Shown here: positions 1,451 to 45,443 of the stretch, in pieces
Layout: every line of letters starts with the position of its first letter
Numbering within the stretch: the first letter of the stretch is position 1
IMG/VR virus record: IMGVR_UViG_3300021422_000208
Coordinates: 716 to 64,715 of that record
Length of the DNA stretch: 64,000 bases
Strand: one strand, 5' to 3'
From: a virus
The notes under the pieces: model-generated
Seen by the model: only the letters and a program-made list of their open reading frames with translations
Database searches by the model: none
What the model was told of the DNA's origin: nothing
Program-made: the position numbers and the translations under genes

Positions 1451-1503
1451 AATTCTCTTCCAGATGATGATTTGGTGTGTGGATTTAGGTGACTTATTTC
1501 TCC

Positions 1504-1521
1504 TAAATATAGTAGTATTTA
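1504..1521. promoter_or_regulatory. Divergent pair of T4-type late promoters (TAAATA)
   Basis: TAAATA on + at 1504-1509 and on - at 1521-1516, between the divergent gp26-like and tape measure starts. Confidence 0.6.
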
Positions 1522-1547
1522 TATTCACATTTTACTGGAACTTTTTT

Positions 1548-4500
1548 ATGGACAACACTGACATTGAAAACCTTGGCAAAATAATAGCCGCATCACTAAC
1601 ATCAAAACTTGGCATCGGCAATTCGACGGCGCCAGCTGCTTCCGCACCAGCCTCCACGAGTGCAGCAACCGATGATTATCTAGCCAGTATAGGCAAGCTC
1701 ATATCTTCGGCTAAGGAATTAGGACAGGAATATATTCCACTAGCAGCTGGTATGTTGAATTTTGCAAATTCAACAACTGCGGCATCAAATTCCCTTCAGG
1801 CATTAAATCTCACTAACAACAAGGCTATTGCATCTATCACGAAGTCTTTGGAAACTAGCCGTGCGCAACTTAATGAGGCTGGTAAAGTTGGTATTGGTGG
1901 TGGTAGTCCATCTGCGTTAGGTTTAGAAGCAGCGAAATCTGGATTGACCATTGCTGAATTCACAAAAACTATAGCGGATTCGAATGGGGCATTGGCTGGA
2001 CTTGGTCGAACTGCCAAGGTTGCTGTAGAAAACTACTCAGATATTACCAGTCGAGTTTTAGAATCGACTGCCGGTAAACAATTAATTGCCTCCGGTATGC
2101 AAACTGCCGAAATGGCTAAGTTAACTGCCATTGTTAGTATGAGCACCAAAGTCAATGCGAGTGACATAAAAGGGCGTGAACAATTGGCAGCATCAACGCT
2201 GTCATTGGCAACCCAACTCGATGAAACCGCCAGACTTACTGGCCTTAATCGAGAAACAATGGCAAATGAGATTGCGGAACGGAATAAAACCGCCGAAAGC
2301 ATTGCTTGGCAGCGTACACTATCAGTAGACCAGCGAACTGCTTACACAGAGATGCAAGGCACCCTTGCGGACTTGGGTGACGAGGTAGGTAATGCCATGT
2401 TAAATGTAGTAGCAGGCGCTCGAATGACTGATTCGACCATAGCTACCAAGATTGCGCTGGGTGAAAGCTGGACCGAACTTGAAGCAGCAATGGTTCAACG
2501 GAAGAATGCCGTCGGGGAAGCGGAGATTGCAGCTGCTAAGGACAGGTTGGAACAGGCACGGATTGGCGCATTAGAATACCAAAAGACGAGTCAATTCCAA
2601 AACCAAACCCTGTACAATACCTCCGAGATCGGTACCAAGAGTTTAAAAATTGCAAAAGACAGCGATGCAGCATTCAACGCCTTACAAAGCGGTGCCAAGG
2701 AACTTAAAAAACCATCCGAGGTAAAAACAGAAGTACAGCAGAATCAATTAGGCTTGGATGCATCTGGTAAGCCGTTGGCCGGTGCGGCGGTTATGACTGA
2801 AATTAATAAAGGATTCGAAGGGATTCGACTGGCTGCGGTCGGTGGTGCAGGTGCGGTTGATAAACTCAACAATACACTAAGTGCCACTCCTGCAGTGGTT
2901 AACTCAGTGACTGAATCCTTTAAAATGTTAGGTAATTTTAATAAAACTAGTGCACAATATACTGATGAAATGGCGGCAATGCCTAAGAAAGTGGCTAGTG
3001 TACTCAGTGGATTAGTAACACCTGGTGCCACAGTTGCTCCTATCAGTGGCCCTGCTACTGCTACTCCTTCGTCTGCCTACATCGATGTAGGCAGACGATT
3101 GGATGAGCAAGTGGCACTTAATCCAAATCCACATCCACTTAAACGCAAAGAAGGTTCGCTAGGTGCTACTGGTTCGATGATTGAAGATTTTGGTACCGAA
3201 ACCCCTGCGCTATTGCATGGAAAAGAGGGGGTTATTACTGAGAATCAATTTAACGATATAAAATCACAATTTAAATTATTACAGGCAAATGTTCGTGAAG
3301 TTCCAGCTCATGCTAATAAAGTTGGAAATAGTGGATTTACTGATTTTGAAAAACCGTCCAATGAACTTCAAAATCAAACAAAAGCAATCGAAAGCAATGC
3401 CGATCGTGATATATTTGGCGATGCCACTAAGCAATTATCATCATTGTTTACCAATAATGAAAAATCCATTAAGGATCAATTAGGTAATTTTCAAAATCAA
3501 ACAAAAGCAATCGAAAGCAATGCCGATCGTGATATATTTGGCGATGCCACTAAGCAATTATCATCATTGTTTACCAATAATGAAAAATCCATTAAGGATC
3601 AATTAGGTAATTTTCAAAATCAAACAAAAGCAATCGAAAGCAATGCCGATCGTGATATATTTGGCGATGCCACTAAGCAATTATCATCATTGTTTACCAA
3701 TAATGAAAAATCCATTAAGGATCAATTAGGTAATTTTCAAAATCAAACAAAAGCAATCGAAAGCAATGCCGATCGTGATATATTTGGTACCAGTAATGAC
3801 TTTTTAGAAACTGCTGGTGAAAAAATAACGACTATTTTTTCCAATACTGATAAATTAGCCAAGGAGCAATTGGGTGTATTCAATAACCAAGTAAAAGACC
3901 TCGGTGGAAAAAAAGAGCATGGTATATTTGAAGAAATAACTAAGCAAATTTCGTCGATTTCATCGATATTCCTAGATGAAAAGAAGACAAATCAGGATCA
4001 ATTAGCCGGGGTAAAAGTTCAAGTAAAAGACCTCGGTGGAAAAAAAGAGCAACCGTATAATCCAGGAAATGTTAAGTACCAATTGAAACCTGAGACTTAC
4101 AATGAAAAACCAATAGGTGGGTCATCTGGTCATGGACACGTTGAATTGGGTCCTCGTTACCGACATGAAGAACGTGATCCAGTCGTTAGTGGCATTAGTA
4201 AGTTAGATCAGGAATTGAGAAAATTAACAAATATGGCGTCAAATACTGATAATATCAGTAAACAGGCATCTGAATATTTATCGAAAATTAACATCAAGTA
4301 TACTGACACGAAGGTTGGGAATGCGCCGGTAATTAACAAAATTCCCGAGGTTGGCCGAATTGAGAGTAAAATACCAACCAGGGACGTAATGGCACCGCAT
4401 GTTCCATCTGACGAATATAAAAATAAGCCAGTAGTAAGTAAAGAACCTCCGGTTATTTCCCCAATTGCGCCAGTTGGGGAAATAACTATAAAAGATTTAC

Positions 4501-4622
4501 ATACCGCACTGATTAACTTAAATACCAACATGATGCGCATGGTGAGTTATACTGAATCAATTAGTGAATCTAGTCACAAAACGGCTAGACATACTAGGGA
4601 ATCAACTGGCTTACGAATGTAA
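1548..4622 (+). CDS. Tape measure protein
   Basis: Long Ala/Leu/Thr-rich helical protein (~1024 aa from MDNTDIEN at 1548), next to the hub gene and upstream of portal, with internal tandem repeats. Confidence 0.7.
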   Translation: MDNTDIENLGKIIAASLTSKLGIGNSTAPAASAPASTSAATDDYLASIGKLISSAKELGQEYIPLAAGMLNFANSTTAASNSLQALNLTNNKAIASITKSLETSRAQLNEAGKVGIGGGSPSALGLEAAKSGLTIAEFTKTIADSNGALAGLGRTAKVAVENYSDITSRVLESTAGKQLIASGMQTAEMAKLTAIVSMSTKVNASDIKGREQLAASTLSLATQLDETARLTGLNRETMANEIAERNKTAESIAWQRTLSVDQRTAYTEMQGTLADLGDEVGNAMLNVVAGARMTDSTIATKIALGESWTELEAAMVQRKNAVGEAEIAAAKDRLEQARIGALEYQKTSQFQNQTLYNTSEIGTKSLKIAKDSDAAFNALQSGAKELKKPSEVKTEVQQNQLGLDASGKPLAGAAVMTEINKGFEGIRLAAVGGAGAVDKLNNTLSATPAVVNSVTESFKMLGNFNKTSAQYTDEMAAMPKKVASVLSGLVTPGATVAPISGPATATPSSAYIDVGRRLDEQVALNPNPHPLKRKEGSLGATGSMIEDFGTETPALLHGKEGVITENQFNDIKSQFKLLQANVREVPAHANKVGNSGFTDFEKPSNELQNQTKAIESNADRDIFGDATKQLSSLFTNNEKSIKDQLGNFQNQTKAIESNADRDIFGDATKQLSSLFTNNEKSIKDQLGNFQNQTKAIESNADRDIFGDATKQLSSLFTNNEKSIKDQLGNFQNQTKAIESNADRDIFGTSNDFLETAGEKITTIFSNTDKLAKEQLGVFNNQVKDLGGKKEHGIFEEITKQISSISSIFLDEKKTNQDQLAGVKVQVKDLGGKKEQPYNPGNVKYQLKPETYNEKPIGGSSGHGHVELGPRYRHEERDPVVSGISKLDQELRKLTNMASNTDNISKQASEYLSKINIKYTDTKVGNAPVINKIPEVGRIESKIPTRDVMAPHVPSDEYKNKPVVSKEPPVISPIAPVGEITIKDLHTALINLNTNMMRMVSYTESISESSHKTARHTRESTGLRM
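3367..3787 (+). repeat. Perfect in-frame 123-bp tandem repeat, ~3.4 copies (41 aa FQNQTKAIESNADRDIFGDATKQLSSLFTNNEKSIKDQLGN)
   Basis: Copies start at 3367, 3490, 3613 and 3736 and are identical at nucleotide level. Confidence 0.95.
3888..4051 (+). repeat. 32-bp direct repeat CAAGTAAAAGACCTCGGTGGAAAAAAAGAGCA
   Basis: Copies at 3888-3919 and 4020-4051, in frame (132 nt apart). Confidence 0.9.
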
Positions 4623-4650
4623 AAATTAATACATTTAATGGAGAACTAAT

Positions 4651-7600
4651 ATGAGTTGGCGGAAATATTTTACCCCAGTTGACACTGAACTAAGTCCTAT
4701 TTCTGGACTTAGTAATTTGACCAAAGCAGGTCCAGCTAGAACTAACTATTCCAGCTATCTACCTGATGTGTACACGGGTAGTCCCAACCGAGTGGAACGG
4801 TACCAGCAGTATGAAGTTATGGATAGTGATCCAGAAGTAAATGCTGCCCTTGACATTCTAGCAGAATTTTGTACACAAAAATTAAAGGATGGAAAAAGCC
4901 CCTTTACTGTGAAATGGAGAAGCAAAGCTACGAATTCTGAAATTCGTATTCTGGGTGAATATCTACAGCAATGGAATAAATTGCAACAATTTGATACTCG
5001 TATTTTCCGTGTAATTCGTAATGTTTACAAATACGGTGATGCTTTTTTCATCAGAGATCCAGAAACACAAAAATTAAGTTGGGTTGACCCCAGTAAGATT
5101 GTTAAAATTATTGTCAACGAAAGTGATGGTAAAAAACCTGAACAATATATCATAAAAGATCTAGCGCCAAATTTTGAAAATTTAGTGGTAACACAAATTA
5201 CACCTAATATTAATTCAAGGCAAGCAGGTGGCGGCATGACTTCCGGTGCTGGTGCCTTGGGTTCACAAAGTGCACAACGAGGTGCGTCAGGTCCATACCC
5301 AAGTAGCAGTACTGGTAGTAGATTTGGATTGGCTGAAACTGAACATGCCATAGATGCAGCGCATGTTGTCCATATATCATTATCCGAAGGTCTCGATAAC
5401 AATTATCCATTTGGCAATAGTTTATTGGAAAATGTCTTTAAGGTTTATAAACAAAAAGAATTGCTTGAAGATGCTGTATTGATATATCGCATTCAACGGG
5501 CACCTGAGCGTAGAGTATTCCACATAGACACTGGTAATATGCCTAGTCATATGGCAATGGCATTTGTTGAACGTGTCAAGAATGAAATACATCAACGAAG
5601 AATACCTAGCCAATCCGGCGGTGGATGTTTTGAAATGAGCACTCGAATTCCATTGTTGGATGGCAGGATACTTTCAATTTCAGAATTGGCACTTGAATAC
5701 TCAGCCGGTAAGGAAAACTGGGCATATAGTTGTGATCCAATTAATCTGACAATTGTTCCTGGTATAATTTCATGGGCGGGTATAACACAACAATCCGCAC
5801 AGGTAATTGAGCTTATTCTTAGTAATGGGTCAATCATTGTGTGTACACCTGAACATAAATTTCCAACAGTTAATCGCGGTGAAGTCGTGGCATCTGAATT
5901 AATTTTACACGATGATAGTTTAATTGGCTTTAATGGTGAATTAAATCCACTTGGTAACGACACAATACATACAGTCGTATCTAGTCGCATATTAGATGAC
6001 TTAATTGAAGTTGGTACGTTAACTATCGATGGTGATGAAAAACAACATGCACATCATACATTTGCGATAGAACAAGGTGTCTATACATATAATTCAAATG
6101 TCATTGATTCCGCCTATAATCCACTCTGCTTAGACCTGTTAACCGAGATCCCATTACTAGATGGTAGAATTTTGACATTATCTGAATTAATATCTGAATT
6201 TGAAGCAGGCAAGGAGAACTGGGCATATAGTTGCGAACCTACAACTGGTAAAGTTGTACCAGGAATCATTAATTGGGCAGGCGTTACTCGTAAAAATGCG
6301 GACGTTATTAAGATAACATTCGATAATGGTAAGACTTTAACCTGCACACCTGATCATAAAATACCTGTATTTGACAAGGGTTTTGTTGAAGCAAGTGAAT
6401 TGACCATTGATGATGTTTTAATGTCATTTAATACTAGGTTGGAGTCAGTTAATGCTTCGCAATTGCAGCAGGTATGGGATCACGAAGCTAAATCTTGGGT
6501 ATGGACACGTCAATTAGTTGGCGATTTTTTCAAAGCCATTAGTAAACACCAGGAATTTACTTACCTGGAAGAAAATATAAATGCTGTCAAAACTGTAATT
6601 CATAACAAAGACGGTGATATATCCAATAATGACCCACGTAATTTATCATACATGAATAAAAAAGATCATATTTCGTATTTTAATGAGCAATTTGATTTTG
6701 ATGTCACCGGCGATATTGAATATTTGGAAGAGAACATTTTACCAATCGGGAAATCTGTCAGTAACATTAGGATCGCTAGTATTGAAAAAGTTCAATGTAT
6801 GGATGTTGGTACAATTACAATTGATGGCACTGGTAGATGGCATTCATATCATACATTTGCTATTAATAGTGGTATTTTTGTCAAAAATTCAATAAATGAA
6901 GATTATTTTTTCCCAATGACTGCCGATGGTCGTGGTAGCAAGGTAGATGTGTTACCGGGTGGATGTTTCGCGATGGACACTCAAGTATCATTACTAGATG
7001 GCCGTGAATTATCCATTACCGATATTGGGCATGAATTAAAATCTGGAAAAGAATTATGGACATACTCATGCCACCCAACGACCGGTGCTATTGTACCTGG
7101 GTTAATTAGTTGGGCAGGGGTTACACAAGCATCAGCCAAGGTTATGAAAATAACACTTGATAACGGCGAGGCTATTATATGTACCCCATGTCATAAATTT
7201 CCGCAGTATGCAAATGAATATAAACGCGCAGGGAATTTTGCGGTAGGTGATAGTCTTATTCCGATGTATCGGAAACATGAAACATTATCCAATGATAGTA
7301 ATCACGAATATGAACAAATATTCGATAACGCAACAAATAATTGGGTATTTACCCACATGATGGTGGCTGAAAATCTCAAAGATACCAGAATTAGTTATAA
7401 TATACACAATACCAATGTCCGTGAAGTCGGTACTGTTAAATTTAAAAAATTAGCAGATACAACGATCCTATCGAAAAATGGAATCGGTGATAGCCGCATG
7501 AAATATTGGTCTGGTAAACATCGTAAAAGTCGAATTAATTTATCAGCTTCACAATCAAAGATAGTTTGGTCAGATAAATTGGGGTCGTTAAAATGTAAAT

Positions 7601-8637
7601 CACCACGTCCAGTCGAGTATTCTCATGCTATACTACTGGCAGTTATTGATATGATCAAAGATACAACCGCTCATAGTTTTACCTGCAATGATGTCATCAA
7701 TGAATTAAATAACAGACCAGAACTATTGGCAAAATTGCGTGAATTAAATAAATTTTCACAAACTAATAATTGGTCAATCAATGATGGATTCACTGCGGTT
7801 GGGATAGTCGATATGATCACTCAATTTGGGTATGACAATTGGACTGATTTTAGAAATAAAGAAAGTACACATAATCATCGGATAATTGCAATTGAACATT
7901 TAGATGAAGAAATTGAAGTTGGTACATTAACTATTGATTTTGATGAAGAATTTCATAATTACCATACATTTGCGTTGTCAGCTGGTGTTATGACTTTCAA
8001 CAGTAACCTCGGCGAAATTGATGATTTAAAATATTTTACTAATAAATTATTCCGTGGTTTACGAATTCCTAGTAGTTATTTACCAACCGGTGCAGATGAT
8101 AGCCAAGCCAGTTTCAATGATGGACGGGTCGGGACTGCTTATATTCAAGAATTGCGGTTTAATAAATATTGTGAACGATTGCAATGGTTGATGACATCAG
8201 TATTTGATGATGAATTTAAACTATACATGAATTCACGTGGTGTGAATATTGATGCTAATTTATTTGAGTTAAACTTCAATCCACCCATGAATTTCGCGAG
8301 TACTAGACAGAGTTCATTGGATAGTGAACGCATTAATACATTTTCAACTATTCAAGCGATTCCATTTATGAGTAATCGATTTGCTTTAAAACGATTTTTA
8401 GGATTAACTGATGATGAAGTTGCTGAAAATGAACAATTATGGGCGGAGGAAAATGGTAAAGGTCAAGCAACCCATACTGATGCCGCCGGTGAATTGCGTA
8501 GTGCTGGATTATCCGCAGCCGGTATAGCTGGTGATTTGGACATGGCCACTGATATGTCTGCCCCAGATGATATGGAAGGGGATATAACTGGTGAATCAGG
8601 GGCAGCGCCAGCGCCAGTAATTCCACCGATGACATAA
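4651..8637 (+). CDS. gp20: Portal protein (gp20-like) precursor containing three inteins; predicted spliced product 572 aa
   Basis: Portal motifs LEDAVLIYRIQRAPERRVFHIDTGNMP, SINEDYFFP..GRGSKVDVLPGG, NLGEIDDLKYFTNKLFRGLRIPSS. First gene of the head cluster. Confidence 0.92.
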   Translation: MSWRKYFTPVDTELSPISGLSNLTKAGPARTNYSSYLPDVYTGSPNRVERYQQYEVMDSDPEVNAALDILAEFCTQKLKDGKSPFTVKWRSKATNSEIRILGEYLQQWNKLQQFDTRIFRVIRNVYKYGDAFFIRDPETQKLSWVDPSKIVKIIVNESDGKKPEQYIIKDLAPNFENLVVTQITPNINSRQAGGGMTSGAGALGSQSAQRGASGPYPSSSTGSRFGLAETEHAIDAAHVVHISLSEGLDNNYPFGNSLLENVFKVYKQKELLEDAVLIYRIQRAPERRVFHIDTGNMPSHMAMAFVERVKNEIHQRRIPSQSGGGCFEMSTRIPLLDGRILSISELALEYSAGKENWAYSCDPINLTIVPGIISWAGITQQSAQVIELILSNGSIIVCTPEHKFPTVNRGEVVASELILHDDSLIGFNGELNPLGNDTIHTVVSSRILDDLIEVGTLTIDGDEKQHAHHTFAIEQGVYTYNSNVIDSAYNPLCLDLLTEIPLLDGRILTLSELISEFEAGKENWAYSCEPTTGKVVPGIINWAGVTRKNADVIKITFDNGKTLTCTPDHKIPVFDKGFVEASELTIDDVLMSFNTRLESVNASQLQQVWDHEAKSWVWTRQLVGDFFKAISKHQEFTYLEENINAVKTVIHNKDGDISNNDPRNLSYMNKKDHISYFNEQFDFDVTGDIEYLEENILPIGKSVSNIRIASIEKVQCMDVGTITIDGTGRWHSYHTFAINSGIFVKNSINEDYFFPMTADGRGSKVDVLPGGCFAMDTQVSLLDGRELSITDIGHELKSGKELWTYSCHPTTGAIVPGLISWAGVTQASAKVMKITLDNGEAIICTPCHKFPQYANEYKRAGNFAVGDSLIPMYRKHETLSNDSNHEYEQIFDNATNNWVFTHMMVAENLKDTRISYNIHNTNVREVGTVKFKKLADTTILSKNGIGDSRMKYWSGKHRKSRINLSASQSKIVWSDKLGSLKCKSPRPVEYSHAILLAVIDMIKDTTAHSFTCNDVINELNNRPELLAKLRELNKFSQTNNWSINDGFTAVGIVDMITQFGYDNWTDFRNKESTHNHRIIAIEHLDEEIEVGTLTIDFDEEFHNYHTFALSAGVMTFNSNLGEIDDLKYFTNKLFRGLRIPSSYLPTGADDSQASFNDGRVGTAYIQELRFNKYCERLQWLMTSVFDDEFKLYMNSRGVNIDANLFELNFNPPMNFASTRQSSLDSERINTFSTIQAIPFMSNRFALKRFLGLTDDEVAENEQLWAEENGKGQATHTDAAGELRSAGLSAAGIAGDLDMATDMSAPDDMEGDITGESGAAPAPVIPPMT
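5626..6093 (+). mobile_element. Intein 1 (mini-intein, 156 aa)
   Basis: Begins CFEMSTRIPLLDGR after GGG, has block B CTPEHKF, ends HHTFAIEQGVYTYN followed by Ser. Confidence 0.9.
6127..6888 (+). mobile_element. Intein 2 (254 aa) with a degenerate HNH-like insert
   Basis: Begins CLDLLTEIPLLDGR, block B CTPDHKI, insert VIHNKDGDISNNDPRNLSYMNKKDH, ends YHTFAINSGIFVKN followed by Ser. Confidence 0.9.
6964..8001 (+). mobile_element. Intein 3 (346 aa) with a basic, probably decayed endonuclease insert
   Basis: Begins CFAMDTQVSLLDGR, block B CTPCHKF, ends YHTFALSAGVMTFN followed by Ser. Confidence 0.9.
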
Positions 8638-8644
8638 ATACATT

Positions 8645-8881
8645 ATGATTTTACGAGAACTATTTTATATTGACCCAGATACTAGGAAGGTAGCTAACGA
8701 CATGCGGTATAATCCCGAGCGTGATGTGACTACTATGCATCGAAATGATACTAGGAAAACACGACTTACATTAAGGCAACTTAATGAACTGCGTAAGGGT
8801 AGTGAAGCACACATTGTGGAACAAGAGGGTGAGCTAGAATTTATCCATGCAATGTACGCAAACCCAGCGGCGCCTGTCTAA
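8645..8881 (+). CDS. Small head-cluster protein (possible prohead core component)
   Basis: 78-aa ORF between portal and the acidic core gene, with late promoter TAAATA at 8635-8640. Confidence 0.65.
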   Translation: MILRELFYIDPDTRKVANDMRYNPERDVTTMHRNDTRKTRLTLRQLNELRKGSEAHIVEQEGELEFIHAMYANPAAPV

Positions 8882-8898
8882 ATACTAGAATACTTGGT

Positions 8899-8930
8899 AA
8901 TAGCTACAAAATGGGCATTTTGTAGCTATT
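8899..8930. repeat. Inverted repeat, 15-bp arms, 2-nt loop
   Basis: AATAGCTACAAAATG gg CATTTTGTAGCTATT. Confidence 0.9.
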
Positions 8931-8944
8931 TGGGTGCTAAAATT

Positions 8945-8952
8945 TATAAATA
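8945..8952 (+). promoter_or_regulatory. T4-type late promoter TATAAATA
   Basis: Full consensus upstream of the head core gene. TAAATA cores also occur at 8635, 8879, 17663, 18681, 24748, 30112, 34960, 55866, 60834, 61560, 63359 and 63780 (+) and at 51868, 55237 and 55860 (-), each just before a structural or nuclease gene. Confidence 0.75.
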
Positions 8953-8996
8953 ACGTAAATATAATACAGCCTTATAACAAATTACAGGAGATTGAC

Positions 8997-9860
8997 ATGA
9001 GTGATAGAGTACAATTTGAAGCTATGCTTGAAGCTTTGATCAATGAGGATCAAGCAGCAGCAAAAGAGATTTTCCATAACATCGTGGTCAATAAATCTCG
9101 CGAAATTTATGAAGAATTATTAGAATCTGACTTTGGTCCTGAAGAAGACGAAGATGAGGACGAAGATGAAGATGAAGACGAAATTGCTGATGATTCAATC
9201 GACACCAGTAATCCATTTGGCGCAACTGATGACGACGAAGAACCTGAAGAAGACGAAGACGAAGGTGAATTATCAGATAGAGTTATGGATTTAGAAGATG
9301 CTCTGGAAGACTTGAAACAAGAATTCGAAGAATTGATGGCTGGCGAAGAAAATGAGCCAGAACATGCTGATATGTTTGGCGGCGAAGAAGAAGAAGGCGA
9401 AGACTTCGATACTGAAGACGATGAATTTGGCGGCGAAGAAGACGAATTTGGTAGTGAATTGCCCGATGACGAAGATGAAGTAAAAGAAGTCCATATGTAT
9501 CATCACGATGGCGATAAGAATAAAGAAAATGATGAATTTGAACAATTTATGGAATACGTGAACAAAGTTTCTTTACCAACACATGGTGACAATGGTGTTC
9601 AAACACGTAGTGCTATCGCGGGTAAAAATGATATGGGCGGTACCACTGCTAATATCACTAAAAGCTTCGCTACCCAAAAGGGTGGTACACAAGGTGGCTT
9701 ATTGAATCCAAGTACACGACCACAAACTGGTGGCAATATCAATGTACCAGGTGCTAAAAGTGCTTCAAAATTAAAACCAGTTGGTAAAGGTCATGGCGCT
9801 GAAAAGAAAGGCACTAGTGATAAACCTGCTAATGACAGAAGCATGATAGGCAGTAGATAA
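8997..9860 (+). CDS. Highly acidic prohead core protein (gp67/gp68-like position)
   Basis: GGAG RBS then MSDRVQFEAMLEALINED; long D/E tracts; upstream of the protease. Confidence 0.7.
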   Translation: MSDRVQFEAMLEALINEDQAAAKEIFHNIVVNKSREIYEELLESDFGPEEDEDEDEDEDEDEIADDSIDTSNPFGATDDDEEPEEDEDEGELSDRVMDLEDALEDLKQEFEELMAGEENEPEHADMFGGEEEEGEDFDTEDDEFGGEEDEFGSELPDDEDEVKEVHMYHHDGDKNKENDEFEQFMEYVNKVSLPTHGDNGVQTRSAIAGKNDMGGTTANITKSFATQKGGTQGGLLNPSTRPQTGGNINVPGAKSASKLKPVGKGHGAEKKGTSDKPANDRSMIGSR

Positions 9861-11612: not shown

Positions 11613-12779
11613 ATGTCAGAACTACTTAATGGCCGTTGGGCGGAAACTAAAGAAGCCCTATTAGAAGGTCTACAAGGCACTAAAAAATCAGTAATGGGTG
11701 TAACATTAGAAAACACTCGTAAATATTTGCTAGAATCACCAACGGCAGGTGCTACTTCTGCTGGCAATGTCGCAACATTGAATCGCGTTATTTTGCCAGT
11801 TATTCGTCGTGTGATGCCAACCGTCATCGCTAATGAATTGGTTGGCGTACAACCAATGACTGGCCCAGTTGGTCAAATCCACACTTTGCGGGTTCGTTAT
11901 TCTGATACATCAGCATCAGCTGGCGTTGTGTCCGGTGAAGAAGCATTGAGTCCATTTAAAATTGCCGAAGCCTACTCCGGTAGCGCAGCTGGTAAAGCAG
12001 CGTCAACTGCCACTTTAGAAGGTCAAGCTGGAAACAGGATGAGTATCCAAATCTTGAAACAAACTGTCGAAGCAAAAACTCGTAAATTGAGTGCTCGTTG
12101 GACATTTGAATCAGCGCAAGATGCCCAAGCTCAGCAAGGTATCGATGTCGAAGCAGAAATTATGGCTGCTTTGGCCCAAGAAATCACTGCTGAAATTGAC
12201 CAAGAAATCTTAGCTTCATTGAGTTCATTAGCTGGTTCAGCTTCGCAAACTTATGACCAAGCTAATGTTTCAGGTACTGCTACTTTCGTCGGTGATGAAC
12301 ATGCTGCTTTGGCTATCCAAATCAATCGTGTTTCTAACTTGATTGCACAACGTACACGTCGTGGCGCAGGTAACTGGGCAGTCGTTAGTCCGTTTGCTTT
12401 GACTATCCTGCAATCTGCTACTACTTCGGCTTTTGCTCGTACTACTGAAGGAACTTTTGAAGCACCTACAAATACAAAATTTGTCGGTACATTGAATAAC
12501 GCACTGAAAGTATACGTAAATAGCTATGCTAACGATTCAACTCCTATCCTAGTCGGTTATAAAGGTGGTTCTGAATCTGATGCTGCTGCTTTCTACTGCC
12601 CATATATCCCATTGATGTCAAGTGGTGTAGTATTAGACCCATCTACATTTGAACCAACTGTTAGCTTCATGACACGTTATGGCTATGTTGAATTGTCTAA
12701 TGTTGCAAGTAGTCTTGGGAATGCTGCAGACTACTTGGGTAAAGTCGCAATTACTGATGGAAATGTTAGATTTAGTTAA
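11613..12779 (+). CDS. gp23: Major capsid protein (gp23-like, compact 388 aa)
   Basis: ILPVIRRVMPTVIANELVGVQPMTGPVG, VEAKTRKLSARWT, FYCPYIPL and FMTRYG motifs; AAGGAG RBS. Confidence 0.95.
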   Translation: MSELLNGRWAETKEALLEGLQGTKKSVMGVTLENTRKYLLESPTAGATSAGNVATLNRVILPVIRRVMPTVIANELVGVQPMTGPVGQIHTLRVRYSDTSASAGVVSGEEALSPFKIAEAYSGSAAGKAASTATLEGQAGNRMSIQILKQTVEAKTRKLSARWTFESAQDAQAQQGIDVEAEIMAALAQEITAEIDQEILASLSSLAGSASQTYDQANVSGTATFVGDEHAALAIQINRVSNLIAQRTRRGAGNWAVVSPFALTILQSATTSAFARTTEGTFEAPTNTKFVGTLNNALKVYVNSYANDSTPILVGYKGGSESDAAAFYCPYIPLMSSGVVLDPSTFEPTVSFMTRYGYVELSNVASSLGNAADYLGKVAITDGNVRFS

Positions 12780-14564: not shown

Positions 14565-16133
14565 TTATTTCACCCATCGTTTTTTACCGCAGTCCCATAT
14601 TTTTAATAATCCTAATTCTTTAGTAATTTCTATTACTGATTTGTTGATGGTGTCATGACCTTTATCTTTTAGTTTTTGTTTTGAAAAGTTAAATCGGTGG
14701 TATAGATGTTCACTGCGTGGGGTCACGTACCAATAGCTAGGTGGTATTTCTCGTTCTAGGGTAAATCCCAGTATTTTGTATAAATTCCCATCACTCCATT
14801 CGTTATCTGAGTATGAGACTATTTTTGTTGGGTTATGTAATTTTATAAAGTGGTGTAATAATCGACTGGCGCCACCCATTACTCTATGTGATGAGGCATA
14901 TCTTATTAATTCGACACCATCTTCGAAATTGCCTATTCCTATTCTAGATTTGCCAAAGGTCATTAGGCTGACTAATTCATCATTATATACTAGGCCATAC
15001 TTGAATGAGCTAGCGGCGTATCCTTGAACGTGATTAGCGGTTAAGAACTGTTTCGCGATGGTTGCATCTATTGATTTAATTTTACATTTCCTAGCATGTA
15101 TGGCAGTTGGTGATATTCCTATTTTATTGACAAGTGCTTGTTTAACTATTGGTTTTTTAAGATTCCAGAAATTAGAAAATATTGTTATTAATTGGATGTT
15201 TAGATCTGCGCATTCTTTGAATTTTTCATAGTGGTATGTTTTGGTTATGTGTGAAATTGCTTCATGATGCCAGTATACGCCGTTATATTCTATTGCGATA
15301 TTAAAATCTGGGAGGTATATATCAATCTCCCGTCTACTTGGTAATAATTTTCTAGTATTTTGTATGATATTAGTAACGCCGAGTTCATTTAAAAATCTTA
15401 TGATTTCCCGTTCTGGTTCACTTTTAAAAGGTTCTCGTAATTTATGTAAATTTAGGTATCGATATATTGTTTGTACATGAACCTCCAGTAAGGTGGCTAA
15501 TTCATATGGGTTCATTGTTTGGTATAATTTTTCTAATTCGGCTTTGTCATTTAAAATAAATAGATTTGGGTTATTATAACGTTCGACCCAGTATGCTGTT
15601 TTATATTTTTCTTTATATGTTGCCTTCATTTTATCTGCGTTATTGTATGAAGCATTGCCATATTTGATTAATTTAGTATTAGCTACTTTTTTGACAATAT
15701 TAGCAACTTTCCCGGCATTGGTATATGTGGCATTGTGTGATTGAATGGCATTGATTGATTGGCCAACGTTGGGTACGCCGTATTTTTCAAGGTTAGTGGT
15801 AGATCGTTTGTTATTAGTTATTAATTTATTGGCGATGGTAGTTTTTGATTTTGTAATTGAAACGCCATTGCTGACTAATTCATTAGTGCATTTGCATACA
15901 CTTGCTCTGCCGCATCCAATAAATCCAGTTGATATTGAATTAAATTTTTTAACGTTTCCATATTTACAAATATTTGATTGTTGGTATATGGCACTGAATA
16001 TATTTGCTGGTAGGTAGTCGGATATTATTAACGAATGTTCTGTAACCCAGTTTAGTAAATCGGCATTGTTAGTGATTAGTTTAGCGTAATGTTTTGGTTT
16101 ATTGGTTATTAATGTTATGATTTCAGCCTTCAT
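14565..16133 (-). CDS. Hef-like putative homing endonuclease (PD-(D/E)XK nuclease plus GNAT/Mom-like C-terminal domain)
   Basis: EKYGVPN/KYGNASYNN repeats, EIDIYLPDFNIAIEYNGVYWH, IHARKCKI..FLTANHVQG, GGASRLL..VSYSD..YKILGF, IWDCG. Confidence 0.75.
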   Translation of the reverse strand: MKAEIITLITNKPKHYAKLITNNADLLNWVTEHSLIISDYLPANIFSAIYQQSNICKYGNVKKFNSISTGFIGCGRASVCKCTNELVSNGVSITKSKTTIANKLITNNKRSTTNLEKYGVPNVGQSINAIQSHNATYTNAGKVANIVKKVANTKLIKYGNASYNNADKMKATYKEKYKTAYWVERYNNPNLFILNDKAELEKLYQTMNPYELATLLEVHVQTIYRYLNLHKLREPFKSEPEREIIRFLNELGVTNIIQNTRKLLPSRREIDIYLPDFNIAIEYNGVYWHHEAISHITKTYHYEKFKECADLNIQLITIFSNFWNLKKPIVKQALVNKIGISPTAIHARKCKIKSIDATIAKQFLTANHVQGYAASSFKYGLVYNDELVSLMTFGKSRIGIGNFEDGVELIRYASSHRVMGGASRLLHHFIKLHNPTKIVSYSDNEWSDGNLYKILGFTLEREIPPSYWYVTPRSEHLYHRFNFSKQKLKDKGHDTINKSVIEITKELGLLKIWDCGKKRWVK

Positions 16134-16141
16134 ATATTCTC

Positions 16142-17581
16142 CTATGTGTGTAAAATAAAGATTTCATTGCCGCAGTCCCAGTAGCGTCTATAATTTGCGT
16201 TGAACATATTTACTGCTTCGGATAAGTTAGGGTCGAAGGTAGTCAGCCATTTTTGTAAATTTGATTTTTGACTTTTGTATCTACTGATTACATTATTGCC
16301 ATTGGTCCAAATATAGCCTGGTTTTGTTGTTCCGATTGAATTGAATCCAGCTTTTGTATATCCAATGCCAGTGCCCTTGGCTAGATCGCAATAGCTGACG
16401 ATGACTGACGATGGGTATAATTTTTTTAAGTAGGATATTAACTTACTGACCCCGCCATTTACTGTTGTATCAGATTTGGCGCACATTCGCAATAATTCAT
16501 AATCATATGCTGTGTTAAATCGTGATTTTCCGATGGACATCATCATTACTAATTCAGATTTATAAAATAGGCCAAATGCTGATGTGGATGCGATGAATCC
16601 TTGGATATGATATTTTTCTAGGAATTCTCGTTCGATTTTTTTATCTATAATTTGGATAGTGCATTGTCTTGCGTGAATTCTTGAATTCAGACCGGTTCGT
16701 GAACGGATGATTGATTTAATTATGTCTTGTTTAAATTTCCATTCGTAGTCGGTTATGTGAAGCAGTGTGACACCATTTTTGGCAGCATTGATTGTTTTGT
16801 TTATATGTTGATTTCTATCTTCTTTTTTCCCACTTGATGGATGATGACTATGCCATCTTAGTCCATTCACTTCAAATGCTAGGTTTAATGATGGAATTAC
16901 TATATCCAATTCTTTGGGTGCAATAATTAATCTATTTGATGCTTCGATAGTCAGCCCCATGCTTGTTATATATTTACCGATATGAATCTCATCGAGTGAT
17001 TTCAATGCGGTTGGTCTTATAATAAATTCAAATTTTCGACAATATTCTGCGACAGTTGAGTAATAAATATTTAATTCATCGGCTATATCTGTCAATGACC
17101 GTTTGTTAATGTTATATTCAGTGTTTAGCCAATGGTAATCAGTTAATTTTTCATGTGTGGATGACAATATTTTTGGTTTATTCCATATGTGTTTTTTATC
17201 TACGCGTTGGCTATTGAATGCAACTCCGTATTTTGACAGCATGGTAGCAATGCGTTTGGTATTTGAATTATTTTTATCTTCGTTGGTAATTTTTGATTTT
17301 GTCATTGTCATTGAAGATGAGATACTTTCGGCGGTACATTTGCAAACATTGGCTGGCCCGCATCCTAAAAACCCAGTGCTTATTCTATCAAACTTTTTGA
17401 GGTTTCCATATTGGCAAATATTTGATTGCTGGTATATGGCGCTAAAAATATTTGATGGTAGATGATCGGACATTATCAATGAGTTCTCGGTGATCCAATT
17501 GAGATATTCAGCATTTTTAGTAATTATTTTAGTGTAGTGTTTTGGTTTATTGGTTATTAATGTTAGAATTTCAGCCTTCAT
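16142..17581 (-). CDS. Second Hef-like putative endonuclease, paralogue of 14565-16133
   Basis: Near-identical N-terminus; ELDIVIPSLNLAFEVNGLRWH, IHARQCTI, GGVSKLI..VSYCD, YWDCG. Confidence 0.75.
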   Translation of the reverse strand: MKAEILTLITNKPKHYTKIITKNAEYLNWITENSLIMSDHLPSNIFSAIYQQSNICQYGNLKKFDRISTGFLGCGPANVCKCTAESISSSMTMTKSKITNEDKNNSNTKRIATMLSKYGVAFNSQRVDKKHIWNKPKILSSTHEKLTDYHWLNTEYNINKRSLTDIADELNIYYSTVAEYCRKFEFIIRPTALKSLDEIHIGKYITSMGLTIEASNRLIIAPKELDIVIPSLNLAFEVNGLRWHSHHPSSGKKEDRNQHINKTINAAKNGVTLLHITDYEWKFKQDIIKSIIRSRTGLNSRIHARQCTIQIIDKKIEREFLEKYHIQGFIASTSAFGLFYKSELVMMMSIGKSRFNTAYDYELLRMCAKSDTTVNGGVSKLISYLKKLYPSSVIVSYCDLAKGTGIGYTKAGFNSIGTTKPGYIWTNGNNVISRYKSQKSNLQKWLTTFDPNLSEAVNMFNANYRRYWDCGNEIFILHT

Positions 17582-34993: not shown

Positions 34994-37900
34994 ATGACAA
35001 CAGCAGCAAAATACGGTGCGCAGGATCTGAATGGTAATCCATTCAGTTATCAACAAATAGTTGCCCCAGTCTCATCGAACAATATAGTAGTCAATGCCAC
35101 ATTTGCTAATCGAAATGGCGCAGACGCAAAGGTACGATTAGCCGAAACATCAGTGCCATTAGTATCACAATCGGTGGCAAGTACTCAAGGATTATTTCCA
35201 TTTGCCGCAACTGCTAGCGCAAATTCAATGATTATACCAACTGCACAAGCATTGACAGTAACTGACACGAGCTTTGGTAGTAACCTAATAACAACTGCTA
35301 GTTATGCTGTTTTTAGTACAATGGTTAATACTAATATAATCACATGTGTGGCTACCAAATCCTTTAATCTAGGTGAACCAGTTGTATTTGTTGGTTCGCT
35401 TGGTAATTTAATTTCAGGTAATATTTATTATGTGTTGACTATTAATAGTGCCACTACTTTTACCGTTTCGACTTCATTGGGTGGCATTCCATTTGCATTA
35501 ACTACCGCCACCGGTACTATACTTGTGCAAGAAACGGTGACCAATTTAGTAATAAATGAACCAATAATGTTTTCAGGTACTGGATTTGGTGGTATTACAA
35601 GTGGACTTTCCTATTACGTATTGACCATAACTGATATGACATCATTTACTATCTCGACATTTCCAAGTGGTCCACCGGTATCAATGTTTACCGCGACTGG
35701 TAATCTTTCAGTTGGGTATAATCCAATGGTATCGACATTGAATCTATCATCAACCGCAGTTGGTACCAATGTTAAGACATTGCAGACACTGACTATTTCT
35801 ACTGCAGATGTTGGTACTAATGTATTCACTTCTGCTAGCATTGCTGTTACCGCGACTACTTTGTCTACCAATTTAATAACTTCGGCTAGCACTGCCACGT
35901 TGACAGTTGGACAACCAGTTGTATTTACTGGTTCGTTGGGTAATTTAGTTAGTGGTACACTTTATTATGTACGAAGTGTTATCAGTAGTACACAGTTTAC
36001 TGTGTCGTCAATCATTGGTGGTGTTGCTGTAATTTTGACAACAGCATCTGGTAATATCGTTGTTCAGCAATCAACTACTACTTTGGCAGTGAATCAGCCA
36101 ATAGTATTTAATGGTACCGCATTTGGTGGAGTGGTATCTGGAGTTAACTATTATATCTCGGCAATTTCCAGTAATACTACCTTCAAGGTGTCTTCTGTGC
36201 CAGGTGGTTCCGTATTTCAATTATATACCGCATCCGGTAACATGGTATTAGGAACAGCATCCTTGCCAGCCACATTAAGTATCGTTAATACTGCCGCAAC
36301 AGCAATGCTTGGCACTGTTGCAGTAACTGCTACCACAACTGGTACGAATTTAATAACCGCAGCGACTACTTCATCATTGGCGATTGGTCAACCAATTGTA
36401 TTCAGTAGTGCCATAGGCAATTTACTAGTAGGTACTACCTATTACGTATTGGCTATTCCAACGCTCACGACATTCAGTGTGTCGGCATATGTTTCTGGAT
36501 TAGCATTTCCATTGAGTGATGCCATTGGTAACGTTACACTAAGTACACAGCAATCATTAAATATTGCAAGTGCCACGACTGGTAGTAATCAATTGACTAC
36601 TGCCGTTGTTCAAACAACTAATACTACCGTTACTACTAATTTAATTACCGTGGTGTCTACTGCTGGATTTTATGTTGGTATGCCAGTTGTTTTTGCAGGA
36701 ACGGTATTTGGTAATATTGTGGCCAACCAACTTTATTACATATTAACGGTCAATAGTTCAACTACTTTTGCGGTATCTATTAATATTAATGGCCCAGTGC
36801 TAGTACTATCTACCGCAAGTGGCAGTTTATTAACTGTTCAGCAATCGACCACTGACGTTGGTGTTAATCAACCGGTTGTCTTTTCTAGTAGTACTCCAGC
36901 GCAAACATATAACATAGCCAATACTACAACTGGTACCAATGTAGTAACTACTCGTGCGATACCGATTACTGCAACTACTACTGGTACAAATGTCATCACT
37001 GCAACTGATACGACCTCATTATTTATCGGTCAACCGGTTGTATTTAATGGATCATTAGGAAATTTAATTGGTAGTACAATTTATTATGTTCAAAGTATCC
37101 CTACTAGTACTCAATTTACTGTATCTGCCACCTTTAGTGGAGTGGTATTTGCGTTAGATACTGCTGCTGGTAGTATTAATTACCAAGAGGCAACTACTAA
37201 TTTAATTGTAAATGAATTGGTTACATTTAGTGGATCGGTATATGGCAATTTAATAGCAGGCACTAATTATTATATACAAAGTGTGGTTTCAAACACATCA
37301 TTTACTGTATCTTCTACTGTAAATGGTAGTATTACTTCGTTGGCAACTGCTACTGGTGTTATGGTAGCAAGTGTCACAATTCCAACTTATTCATTAACGC
37401 TTGGTAATACGACAGTTGGCACTAATGTTATAACTAATTCAATAGTGGCAGTTACTGCCACTGCCGTTGCTACCAATTTAGTGACAATGAGTAGTACTGC
37501 CACCCTGACAGTTGGGCAACCCATTGTGTTTAATGGTACTGCATTTGGTAATATTGTAGCTGGTACTATTTATTATATACAAGCAATCCCATCTAGTACC
37601 ACACTTGTCATATCAGCCACTTTGAATGGTGAAATTTTTGTATTAAGTACCGCTAGTGGCACAATGAGTGTATCTGGTGCTACTACTGGGTTAGTTTTAA
37701 ATCAGCCAATTGTATTTGCTGGTACTACCTTTGGTAATATCATTGCTGGTGCTATTTATTATATACAAAGCGTACCAACTGCACAGACATTTACCGTGTC
37801 AATTATGCCAGGTGGTTCTGCGTTTGCCTTAGTGACCGCAACTGGTACAATGACTAGTAGTATGCCAATTTTTGGCGGAGTATCTGCTAATATTACGTAT

Positions 37901-43829: not shown

Positions 43830-44594
43830 ATGGCTCGGTATCAACAACTGCCGGATAGAATAGATACTTTCTGTTCTTATATACCGGATCAAGCAATGTG
43901 CATGAGTTATGGTATGACACAGGATTGCTGTGTCATACCAGCAAATGGCAAATGTCAGGCAAATATCACTACTGCGTGTGCGTGGACAGTGCCGCCAGGT
44001 GTGTCGTCGATATTTGTTGAATTATGGGGACCAGGTGGCGGTGGTGGTGGCGGCGGTTCTGGTGCTACTTGCGTATCTGGTACCGGCGGCAGTAGTGGTG
44101 GTTATTCTGCAGCTACTATTCCAACTGCGCCAGGGTGTGTTTATACGGTGTGTGCCGGTATTGGCGGCTGTTATGGATGCTGCGGCACTGCTGGCACAGC
44201 CGGAACTACCGCCTACATGTCTGGCTATAATACTAGTACATTTTTATGCGCGGCAGGAGGAACGCCTGGGTGTTCAGTAACGCCGCAAGGATCAATTGGG
44301 CTTAATACGTTAACAACTCCATCGGCGGTTAGTACCAATTGGTTGGGATACAGTAATAATTATATAGTAACTGGGGGACAAGGTGGTAATGTTATTAACG
44401 CAAGTAGTTGCGCATTAATGTCTAATAGAGGTGGATCATCATCATTTAATGGTGGTATTGGTGGGTATTTTTTCTTATCTGCTACCGCAGATGGTGGTGG
44501 TTTCCCAGGTGGTGGTGGTTCAGCAGCCTGTACAACTACTACCGCTAGTTGCGGCGCATGTGGCGGTAGCGGGTTAGTCAGGATATGGTATTGA
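43830..44594 (+). CDS. Gly/Cys-rich adhesin-like protein 1
   Basis: Start moved to MARYQQ; WTVPPGVSSIFVELWGPGGGGG...FPGGGG...GLVRIWY. Confidence 0.7.
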   Translation: MARYQQLPDRIDTFCSYIPDQAMCMSYGMTQDCCVIPANGKCQANITTACAWTVPPGVSSIFVELWGPGGGGGGGGSGATCVSGTGGSSGGYSAATIPTAPGCVYTVCAGIGGCYGCCGTAGTAGTTAYMSGYNTSTFLCAAGGTPGCSVTPQGSIGLNTLTTPSAVSTNWLGYSNNYIVTGGQGGNVINASSCALMSNRGGSSSFNGGIGGYFFLSATADGGGFPGGGGSAACTTTTASCGACGGSGLVRIWY

Positions 44595-44603
44595 GGAATA
44601 ATT

Positions 44604-45437
44604 ATGGGAAGATATAATACACAAGTGGTTTATACTGATGGTACCGCACATACTCAGTGGACCTGTCAACAAACTAGTTTACAAACGCAAGGAACATGTG
44701 TTCTTCAGCTTACGGGTGGGTTAGGAGGTACTGGCACATGTGGGCCAGGATCTGGCGTATCCTGTCAATGGAATGTTCCAGCTGGTGTGTCATCAGTTGT
44801 CATTGAAATATGGGGTGGCGGTGGCGGTGGCGGTTCGGCAGTTATGTGCCAATGCGATACGATTGGTAATGGTGGCGGTGGCGGCGCGTATGCTAGGAAA
44901 ACATTGGCCGTTACTGCTGGCACATGTTACACCATATGTGTTGGTGCCGGAGGTGCCGGAGGTGGCTTAGGTACATTATTAAGTAATGCTACGAGTGCGA
45001 CGTGTTGTTGTGGTGCAAGTGGTGGTACTACTTATATTACTGGTACTGGACTAGCTAATTTATGTGCCGAAGGTGGGTATGGTGGGGAATCACGGATATC
45101 TAGTATGACGACAGTTTCACCAAATGGTGGATGGGCAGGTACTGGTGGCGATGTTAATGTCAGGGGGTCTGATGGTGGCTCTTATAACGATACCTATTTG
45201 AATAGGTATACATGGGGTGGCAGTTCACCATTTGGTGGCAGAAATATATATCTAGCATATGATTGTGCTAGTAAATATCAAGATTTATGCTGCACTGGCC
45301 GAGCAGGTGGTATTTGTGGCTATTATGGAGTATTTCCAGGCGGTGGCGGGACAGGCGGGTTTGCAAGTTGCTGCTGTATTGGGATAGCACCATGCGGTGG
45401 CAATGGTGCACCTGGCGCAATAAGAATTTGGATGTAA
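44604..45437 (+). CDS. Gly/Cys-rich adhesin-like protein 2
   Basis: WNVPAGVSSVVIEIWGGGGGGG...FPGGGG...GAIRIWM. Confidence 0.7.
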   Translation: MGRYNTQVVYTDGTAHTQWTCQQTSLQTQGTCVLQLTGGLGGTGTCGPGSGVSCQWNVPAGVSSVVIEIWGGGGGGGSAVMCQCDTIGNGGGGGAYARKTLAVTAGTCYTICVGAGGAGGGLGTLLSNATSATCCCGASGGTTYITGTGLANLCAEGGYGGESRISSMTTVSPNGGWAGTGGDVNVRGSDGGSYNDTYLNRYTWGGSSPFGGRNIYLAYDCASKYQDLCCTGRAGGICGYYGVFPGGGGTGGFASCCCIGIAPCGGNGAPGAIRIWM

Positions 45438-45443
45438 GGACAC

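Follow-up and report, generated by a model that had tools for sequence, protein, structure and literature searches.

In an uncultured freshwater jumbo myovirus, the portal gene is interrupted by three class-1 inteins (HINT superfamily), which very probably derive from separate HNH lineages, have become immobile passengers and are spliced from an essential portal protein. The gene lies in a 64,000-nucleotide stretch of DNA, here called the window, taken from a metagenomic fragment that CheckV places at approximately 20% completeness, corresponding to a whole genome of about 360 kb (IMG/VR record IMGVR_UViG_3300021422_000208). The window gene is one example of a recurrent and little-described intein hotspot, and its triple occupancy is not unique.

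The portal precursor and its three inteins

The portal gene (4651..8637, + strand) is a single unbroken frame of 3987 nt, comprising 1328 codons and a stop with no internal stop, and encodes a precursor of 1328 aa. The precursor matches the Portal_T4 family (PF07230; E 1.4e-90, profile positions 2–433, in pieces) and phrog_213 (E 1.1e-95), and its exteins match the gp20 sequences of the PDB with E values of approximately 1e-22. At the DNA level, the Portal_T4 profile is divided into blocks 2–247, 253–277 and 278–433 and is thus continuous across the intein junctions. In the precursor, the Pfam profile Intein_splicing (PF14890) is found three times. A profile search of the DNA returned this gene as the sole portal match within the 72.8-kb record. 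Genes for a prohead protease, a scaffold-like protein and the major head protein are found downstream, and the full-length profile match in pieces, together with this synteny of the head module, identifies the portal as one of the T4 gp20 type.

A preliminary description of this DNA had placed three inteins in the portal, and our own parse arrived at exactly the same boundaries. The N-extein (aa 1–325; 4651..5625, + strand) covers Portal_T4 positions 2–247 and, in the alignment to T4 gp20, contains the wing, the stem and the first half of the clip. Intein 1 (aa 326–481, 156 aa; 5626..6093, + strand) is a mini-intein at extein site 325|326 (GGG|SNV). It is followed by an 11-residue extein piece, SNVIDSAYNPL (6094..6126, + strand), which is collinear with intein-less relatives and equivalent to T4 residues 321–328 or thereabouts. 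Intein 2 (aa 493–746, 254 aa; 6127..6888, + strand) is located at site 336|337 (NPL|SIN) and contains a decayed HNH motif. The next extein piece, of 25 residues (SINEDYFF...LPGG; 6889..6963, + strand), corresponds to Portal_T4 positions 253–277 and to T4 residues 329–353, including the inner clip loop. Intein 3 (aa 772–1117, 346 aa; 6964..8001, + strand) has lost its HNH core and occupies site 361|362 (PGG|SNL), in the equivalent of the T4 channel loop. The C-extein (aa 1118–1328; 8002..8634, + strand) covers Portal_T4 positions 278–433 and T4 gp20 residues 354–512, and aligns with the channel loop, the stem helix, the tunnel loop, the wing and the crown. The inteins account for 756 of the 1328 aa, only 36 extein residues separate them, and the spliced product would be 572 aa in length. 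Their removal had been said to restore a contiguous gp20-like sequence, which is borne out both by the continuous profile and by the collinearity of relatives. The GC content of the inteins is 35–36.5%, versus 39% in the exteins.

Each intein begins with Cys1 and is followed by Ser+1. Block B is TPEH in intein 1 (5845–5856), TPDH in intein 2 (6346–6357) and TPCH in intein 3 (7183–7194), and the respective C-terminal ends are YTYN, FVKN and MTFN. The block B Thr and His are invariant among 50 inteins from site 361, and further conserved Cys residues (YSC, and a Cys ahead of the TPxH block) are present in all three window inteins. The terminal Asn is likewise found in all three, preceded by Tyr, Lys and Phe in inteins 1, 2 and 3 rather than by the canonical His. 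Inteins that lack the penultimate His are known to splice. In the wider family, HN endings occur in 54 of 294 mapped inteins and KN is the most frequent ending, with KN, FN and YN dominating the lineages represented in the window.

Inteins 2 and 3 match Intein_splicing above the Pfam gathering cut-off, with 41.8 and 39.1 bits. Intein 1 scores 27.7 bits (E 2.8e-6), below the cut-off of 35.8, but is alignable block for block with the other two. An AlphaFold model of intein 3 reached a pLDDT of 86.9 with an alignment of 50 sequences, against only 32 from the single sequence, and Foldseek matched this model to the HINT domains of PI-PfuI, Mtu RecA, Ssp DnaB and DnaE with a probability of 1.00. The in-frame insertions in the portal are no chance pattern.

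By alignment to T4 gp20 (143 identical residues in 467 aligned columns), the three sites fall at approximately 320|321, 328|329 and 353|354. The clip domain of T4 gp20 comprises residues 279–358 (PMC4493910). The three sites are set on both sides of the inner clip loop (R338, K342), the last of them inside the channel loop (350–359). They are accordingly assigned, on this alignment, to DNA-channel elements, namely to the second half of the clip, which faces the channel, and to the channel loop. The preliminary description had placed them in the clip region that contacts the terminase. The clip assignment stands, but the terminase-contacting tip of T4 (N291, M292, R295, K296; peptide 288–311) is upstream of all three sites. 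The region equivalent to this tip is contained in the N-extein.

Site occupancy, endonuclease decay and intein lineages

Intein-less relatives with 60–84% identity across the complete extein, and as much as 89% within the N-extein, are collinear with the window portal through all three sites. Within this segment, the sole differences are at two +1 positions, where the relatives have Gln or Thr versus Ser in the window. Among the 70 nearest IMG/VR portals, 69 are free of inteins. The nearest cultured relatives are the jumbo phages PA5oct, Atu_ph07 and Rak2-like phages, whose portals are 44–50% identical and intein-less over the portal query; no INPHARED record of a cultured phage covers at least 80% of the precursor. 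Intein 2 has only remote relatives in INPHARED (up to 34% identity), and its annotated matches there fall in other genes, for example those for DNA polymerase, helicase and RNR.

The residue at +1 follows occupancy throughout the family. Ser+1 is present at every occupied copy of the major sites (25/25 at site 325, 125/125 at 336, 45/45 at 347 and 57/57 at 361), and 293 of the 294 mapped inteins start with Cys, with 293 followed by Ser. At empty sites the +1 residue is mostly Gln (325), Ser, Ala or Gly (336), Ala (347), and Thr, Glu, Gln or Asp (361). Site 347|348 is empty in the window (nt 6921|6922, PMT|ADG) and has Ala at +1, as do most unoccupied alleles, while the approximately 45–46 inteins mapped to this site elsewhere always have Ser+1. 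This covariation argues for active splicing.

An independent study yielded a lake contig that contains the whole gene and all three inteins with approximately 99% identity. Within the inteins, the differences from this lake variant are 15 synonymous and 6 non-synonymous, a count from one contig and 21 sites; the synonymous excess in this small sample is consistent with purifying selection, and differences of this mostly synonymous kind likewise argue for active splicing. The gene stretch, whole or in part, is found in 20 listed runs from nine studies. Its presence in several lakes and the unbroken frame are further indirect support for splicing. At the RNA level, three short identical contigs are present in one metatranscriptome and could represent carried-over DNA. 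A comparison of contigs from four runs with positions 4300–9000 gave no joints that would indicate variants of this phage with empty or differently filled sites. The sole sign of another occupancy is one loose end, which belongs to a related phage with an empty site 361 (PGG-QNL).

None of the three inteins retains an intact HNH motif with DNA-binding modules, as an active homing intein would. Intein 1 has no insert and hence no endonuclease, as opposed to full-size site-325 inteins in other phages, which are 483–511 aa long and contain an HNH domain. In intein 2, the HNH remnant (6595–6681) has HN in place of HH and Phe in place of the final His (IHN...DHISYF versus IHH...DHxxYH), its HNH_3 match is weak (16.4 bits), and the C-terminal DNA-binding part of the endonuclease, approximately 170 aa, is deleted relative to the full-size site-336 inteins of 418–421 aa. 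Intein 3 lacks approximately 140 aa, including the HNH catalytic core, relative to site-361 inteins of 453–481 aa, and retains a helical endonuclease remnant. Judged from these motifs, endonuclease function has been lost in all three. A single type of HNH endonuclease is common to the full-size homologues of all major sites. Two free-standing HNH homing-endonuclease genes downstream of the portal gene, at 14565–17581 (− strand), were considered as trans-acting kin of the intein endonucleases and rejected, as BLASTP gave no significant similarity.

In the intein tree, each window intein clusters with inteins that occupy its own site in other phages, with SH-aLRT support of 98% for the grouping of intein 1 with site-325 inteins and 97% for the placement of intein 2. 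Site labels require 25 changes on this tree, versus 105 when shuffled. Since each intein groups with same-site inteins elsewhere, the tree points to three old, site-specific HNH-intein lineages rather than a recent duplication.

Altogether, 294 inteins were mapped to 12 portal positions, 11 of them inside 45 residues, and this segment is the most conserved stretch of approximately 45 residues in gp20-type portals. Portal genes with one to five inteins in the same segment are numerous in public metagenomes, and their occupancy is patchy, with 36 different combinations of sites. Three inteins are found in 24 protein clusters, four in one and five in one. The window had been put forward as an unusually dense cluster, a claim whose novelty was to fall if triple occupancy proved common; with these counts, it does.

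Origin and persistence of the inteins

In the explanation that we favor, each lineage would have spread by homing into its own target among related phages, and all three would then have lost endonuclease function in this phage, leaving immobile passengers. Since the portal is essential, a working protein would require either exact protein splicing or exact deletion of the inserts, and the inteins would therefore persist. Per subunit, three autocatalytic reactions (attack by Cys1, transfer to Ser+1 and Asn cyclization) would be completed before entry into the dodecamer, as 756 aa of inserts at the subunit interface and the channel entrance should be incompatible with ring assembly. Splicing is thus predicted to occur, to be constitutive and to precede assembly. 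A different role had been suggested in the preliminary description, namely that splicing gates head assembly or packaging. Such a gate, in which redox state, metal, temperature or stage would time portal maturation and the steps that follow, is in our judgment very unlikely. Splicing would indeed have to come before a functional clip and channel, so that a slow or conditional step would delay assembly, and a redox trap built from Cys1 and the further conserved Cys residues is conceivable. Some other inteins are also documented to splice conditionally, an example in the available text of PMC7360933 being the mycobacterial DnaB intein, which is inhibited by zinc. However, 69 of the 70 nearest relatives do without any intein, occupancy is patchy, the inteins come from homing-endonuclease lineages at differing stages of decay, and no feature specific to regulation was found in the three. 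Sporadic occupancy, intein-free relatives and decayed endonucleases are together the signature of selfish elements. Even more improbable is a dead gene or an artefact, with inteins that do not splice in a pseudogene or a chimeric assembly. The decay of all endonucleases, the missing penultimate His and the incompleteness of the metagenomic fragment could be read in this way, but the stop-free frame of 3987 nt, the intact splicing residues, the independent assembly of the same three-intein gene with mostly synonymous differences, and the recurrence of the stretch across runs and studies all speak against it.

The inteins could also have arisen from one another, through recent duplication of a single intein into the look-alike neighboring sites GGG|S and PGG|S. 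The three are clearly paralogous, have their N- and C-terminal splicing blocks in common and are 65–79% identical in DNA over a 75-nt block; both site 325 and site 361 are set between Gly-Gly and Ser-Asn, and the tree joins the lineages of these two sites as sister groups (96%). Against this, the window inteins are nearer to same-site inteins elsewhere (65–74% over the splicing blocks) than to their neighbors in the gene. A recent intragenic duplication is contradicted by the tree and hardly credible, and the placement of each intein in a same-site clade means that any ectopic jump would be ancient and would predate this phage. A further process would add to separate homing rather than replace it, and we regard it as possible but doubtful: a double-strand break made by the HNH endonuclease of a full-size neighbor, 33–120 bp away, could carry the mini-inteins beside it into the recipient by co-conversion, in which case whole clusters would travel as a block. 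The sites are only 11–40 codons apart, and mixed states are found at the same three sites, for example full/decayed/full in P0002, with full-size inteins of 490 and 477 aa, and mini/decayed/full in P0004. An intact HNH motif is present in 77% of inteins in singly occupied portals, 48% in doubles and 28% in triples, a trend that is partly an artefact, since the main protein search (set A) could return only proteins of at least 730 aa and so missed portals whose sole insert is a small mini-intein. In T4, defunct elements are known to home in trans, and the same question has been posed for inteins (PMC10643990). In that study, however, two active neighboring inteins of haloarchaeal MCM co-home poorly and their phylogenies are without a sign of co-homing, and in the window gene there is no active endonuclease left to provide the break.

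Relation to known intein systems and significance of the hotspot

Inteins have been described in portals of actinobacteriophages and prophages (PMC5050341, PMC4760082, bioRxiv 10.1101/2025.01.02.630785), among them 14 in portals of the SPP1 gp6 type (Novikova et al. 2016, PMC4760082). As far as the available text of these sources goes, those inteins resemble the ones in the window in being class-1 inteins in an essential portal gene, with a sporadic distribution, polyphyletic groups and an interpretation as selfish homing elements. On the same basis, they differ in that the portals belong to other families (SPP1 gp6 type, IPR009279) rather than to T4 gp20 (PF07230), and the endonuclease named in the ICE-BLAST survey (bioRxiv 10.1101/2025.01.02.630785) is LAGLIDADG, unlike the HNH type of the gp20 hotspot. 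Neither multiple inteins per portal nor a clustered hotspot was found in the available text of the three sources. Our literature search likewise returned no description of a gp20 intein hotspot or of multi-intein gp20 portals, although this is not proof that they are unpublished. T4 gp20 itself (PDB 3JA7, 6UZC; Sun et al. 2015, PMC4493910) is homologous to the exteins over their whole length and contains no intein, as opposed to three in the window portal, and the order of the head genes (prohead protease, scaffold, major head protein) is T4-like.

The closest parallel outside portals is haloarchaeal MCM (Turgeman-Grott et al. 2023, PMC10643990), in which close-set sites in a conserved gene are likewise occupied by site-specific lineages, and alleles with and without an intein have different +1 residues (at MCM-d, Ser when invaded and Pro when not). 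The possibility that endonuclease-less inteins ride on their neighbors is raised there as well. MCM is a cellular replicative helicase, whereas the gp20 portal is a viral structural protein, and MCM has four sites, commonly with two filled, versus 11 mapped positions in a 45-residue span of gp20, with as many as five inteins per gene and many mini or decayed forms.

On its own, the window is of little weight: it is a well-preserved case of a structural phage gene that contains selfish elements. Annotation pipelines ought to give the mature portal of this phage as 572 aa. The family offers more. Its lineages yield related mini-inteins of 136–160 aa at Gly-Gly|Ser-Asn-type junctions, which may interest protein engineers, and its alleles could reveal how the +1 residue works as an immunity or compatibility switch. 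We tentatively propose, as an idea with a modest chance of being right, that the clip/channel-loop segment may be among the densest natural intein hotspots and that endonuclease-less inteins may persist and spread there as blocks, through co-conversion from breaks by a neighbor's HNH enzyme. If so, the gp20 portal family, with hundreds of natural alleles in all combinations of empty, full-size, decayed and mini states at no fewer than six major sites in 135 bp, would provide a natural system for testing intein co-homing, suited to determining whether neighboring inteins aid or hamper each other's homing, the question posed for MCM.

Architecture of the portal gene

The portal gene is an uninterrupted ORF of 1328 codons (4651-8637, + strand) that harbors three inteins: Intein 1 (156 aa; protein aa 326-481, nt 5626-6093), Intein 2 (254 aa; aa 493-746, nt 6127-6888) and Intein 3 (346 aa; aa 772-1117, nt 6964-8001). 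Together these make up 756 of the 1328 residues of the precursor, the extein pieces between them measure 11 and 25 residues, and the predicted spliced portal is 572 aa long. In PHROGs the precursor matches phrog_213 (portal). Its Pfam hits are a fragmented Portal_T4 match (PF07230; E 1.4e-90) and three Intein_splicing domains (PF14890). At the DNA level, Portal_T4 profile positions 2-247, 253-277 and 278-433 are covered, so the match is continuous across the junctions. A script locating junction motifs in the precursor returned coordinates identical to those of the preliminary description, whose triple intein observation was borne out in every detail. Its proposal that intein removal restores a contiguous gp20-like sequence also holds, as intein-less relatives are collinear and continuous through the insertion segment (…GGGQNVIDSAYNPLSINEDYFFPQTAEGRGSKVETLPGGTNLGEIDD…). 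At the insertion sites, the window exteins differ from these relatives only by Gln to Ser after residue 325 and Thr to Ser after residue 361.

Insertion sites, numbered on the window exteins, were mapped by alignment with T4 gp20 from NC_000866, in agreement with a PDB sequence search. Occupied sites 325/326 (T4 about K320/I321) and 336/337 (T4 M328/S329) lie in the second half of the clip, site 347/348 (T4 R339/D340), empty in the window, in the inner clip loop, and occupied site 361/362 (T4 A353/D354) in the channel loop. In T4 gp20, the clip domain comprises residues 279-358, with a terminase-contact tip (N291, M292, R295 and K296; peptide 288-311), an inner clip loop (R338 and K342) and a channel loop at residues 350-359 (Sun et al. 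2015, PMC4493910). The inteins had been placed in a clip region contacting terminase; the clip assignment stands, but the sites lie downstream of the tip that contacts terminase, on the side facing the DNA channel.

Each of the three inteins contains Cys1, a block B TxxH motif, a terminal Asn and Ser+1, the first extein residue after the intein. The penultimate His is absent from all three, and the endings KN, FN and YN predominate in their lineages. The model of intein 3, predicted from a 50-sequence alignment, is confident (pLDDT 86.9), and solved HINT domains of inteins match it with a probability of 1.00. The entire gene with all three inteins is also found at ~99% identity on a contig of a different lake study, where 15 of the 21 differences within inteins are synonymous. 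Three identical short metatranscriptome contigs, one of which falls within intein 1, hint weakly at transcription of the region.

Site-specific intein lineages in gp20 portals

The precursor was searched by word index against 5.8 billion protein clusters, giving 896 matches; the best 120 are without exception gp20 portals containing intein domains, with lengths of up to 1939 aa. Iterated HMMs of the N- and C-terminal splicing blocks, seeded with the three window inteins, were used to parse all of these matches as well as 150 representatives obtained by searching exhaustively with the N-extein in HMMER. This mapped 294 inteins to 12 positions, of which 11 fall within residues 321-366, chiefly sites 336 (n=125), 361 (57), 347 (46), 325 (25), 365 (14) and 362 (9). 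One intein is found in 107 proteins, two in 53, three in 24, four only in portal protein cluster P0021 and five only in P0003; the window's combination (325, 336, 361) recurs in clusters P0002, P0004 and P0050. Triple occupancy is therefore recurrent rather than unique, and the earlier impression of an unmatched dense cluster was not sustained. These cluster-search samples are skewed to long proteins and to cluster diversity. In a length-unbiased sample, the 80 IMG/VR loci with the most similar N-extein (61-89% identity), 69 of 70 complete portals are intein-free and one carries a single intein, indicating that intein alleles are a minority by frequency, yet very diverse. A contig of X13, another lake sequencing run from a similar habitat, represents a related phage with site 361 empty and Gln at +1; its C-extein (window about 8011) is joined directly to ...VEVLPGG-QNL.

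The residue at +1 covaries with occupancy. Ser follows the intein at every occupied site 325 (25/25; usually Q when empty), 336 (125/125; S, A or G), 347 (45/45; A) and 361 (57/57; T, E, Q or D), and at 13 of 14 occupied sites 365 (the other Thr; usually E when empty), a pattern predicted for a required splicing nucleophile. At the window's empty site 347/348 (nt 6921/6922) the +1 residue is Ala, whereas Ser is always found there in occupied alleles (46 mapped inteins elsewhere). An allele of this kind would be unable to support splicing by the site-347 lineage, and the site-347 endonuclease may still cut it, a situation comparable to the Pro/Ser case of PMC10643990.

The three window inteins are paralogous: they have the same splicing blocks, and their DNA is 65-79% identical over 75 nt. 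When 172 splicing domains were placed on a tree, each window intein grouped with same-site inteins of other phages (support of 98% for site 325, 97% for site 336 and 96% for sites 361 and 325 together), and site labels require 25 changes, versus 105 when shuffled. This same-site grouping contradicts a recent duplication inside the portal gene. The inteins are thus three old site-specific lineages, and any jump between look-alike Gly-Gly/Ser-Asn sites would be ancient.

Source genome and neighborhood

The 72,780-base IMG/VR record is ~20% complete (CheckV), implying a genome of several hundred kilobases. Window DNA, whole or partial, is present in 20 listed freshwater/lake-water runs from nine studies. 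The closest cultured portals, from the jumbo myoviruses PA5oct, Atu_ph07 and Rak2-like phages (44-50% identity), show no intein over the precursor query. The portal gene is followed by genes for an acidic protein, prohead protease, scaffold-like protein and major head protein (11613-12779), with baseplate wedge genes further on. The very acidic 308-aa protein (8934-9860, +), with long Asp/Glu runs and a GAAGAC-type repeat at 9144-9182, lies between portal and protease and has no PHROG match. Directly upstream of the portal, a 1052-aa ORF (1464-4622, +), also without a PHROG match, contains a 123-nt unit repeated 3.4 times at 100% identity (3367-3787) and encoding perfect 41-aa protein repeats; the lack of divergence between copies points to an expansion in the very recent past or to an effect of assembly. 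Among the tail and baseplate genes is a 2944-aa ORF (34994-43828, +) with no PHROG match at E 1e-5. The interval 44001-46000 has 46.5% GC and a strong GC skew (0.28), against ~34-41% GC elsewhere in the window.

Two tandem free-standing HNH homing-endonuclease genes (14565-16133 and 16142-17581, both -; phrog_3339/phrog_559) lie a short distance beyond the major head protein gene. Their products are 36% identical, with the first 60 residues nearly identical; comparison showed them to be unrelated to the intein endonucleases.

Probable homing and splicing in the portal hotspot

At every major site, full-size inteins (~375-530 aa) encode the same type of HNH endonuclease, which has helical DNA-binding modules. 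Of the window inteins, the first is a mini-intein with no endonuclease, the second retains an HNH motif remnant with two key His replaced and the C-terminal modules missing, and the third lacks ~140 aa, including the catalytic core. All three are defective as mobility enzymes, and in 13 of the 24 triple alleles none of the inteins has an intact HNH motif. Inteins of the hotspot that lack an endonuclease may be mobilized through co-conversion with active neighbors, a question left open for inteins (Turgeman-Grott et al. 2023, PMC10643990); given the sampling bias, our data are suggestive at best.

The three are best read as selfish homing inteins that have reached a late point in the homing cycle. 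On this view they sit in the gene's most conserved stretch of DNA and persist because the portal is essential and works only if splicing is precise. Each subunit would have to splice itself three times, autocatalytically, before the ring assembles, since the 756 extra residues would otherwise occupy the intersubunit sheet and channel entrance. The preliminary description had instead raised the idea that splicing gates head assembly or packaging; this is unlikely, as nothing observed specifically favors it and almost all close relatives lack inteins altogether.

Phage portals with inteins have been described before (PMC5050341, PMC4760082 and bioRxiv 10.1101/2025.01.02.630785), and neighboring intein sites within one gene are known from haloarchaeal MCM; our literature search found no description of an intein hotspot in the gp20 clip. 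The window portal is a real feature and one of many natural examples of multi-intein gp20 portals, of interest mainly as a way into this family-wide gp20 intein hotspot.
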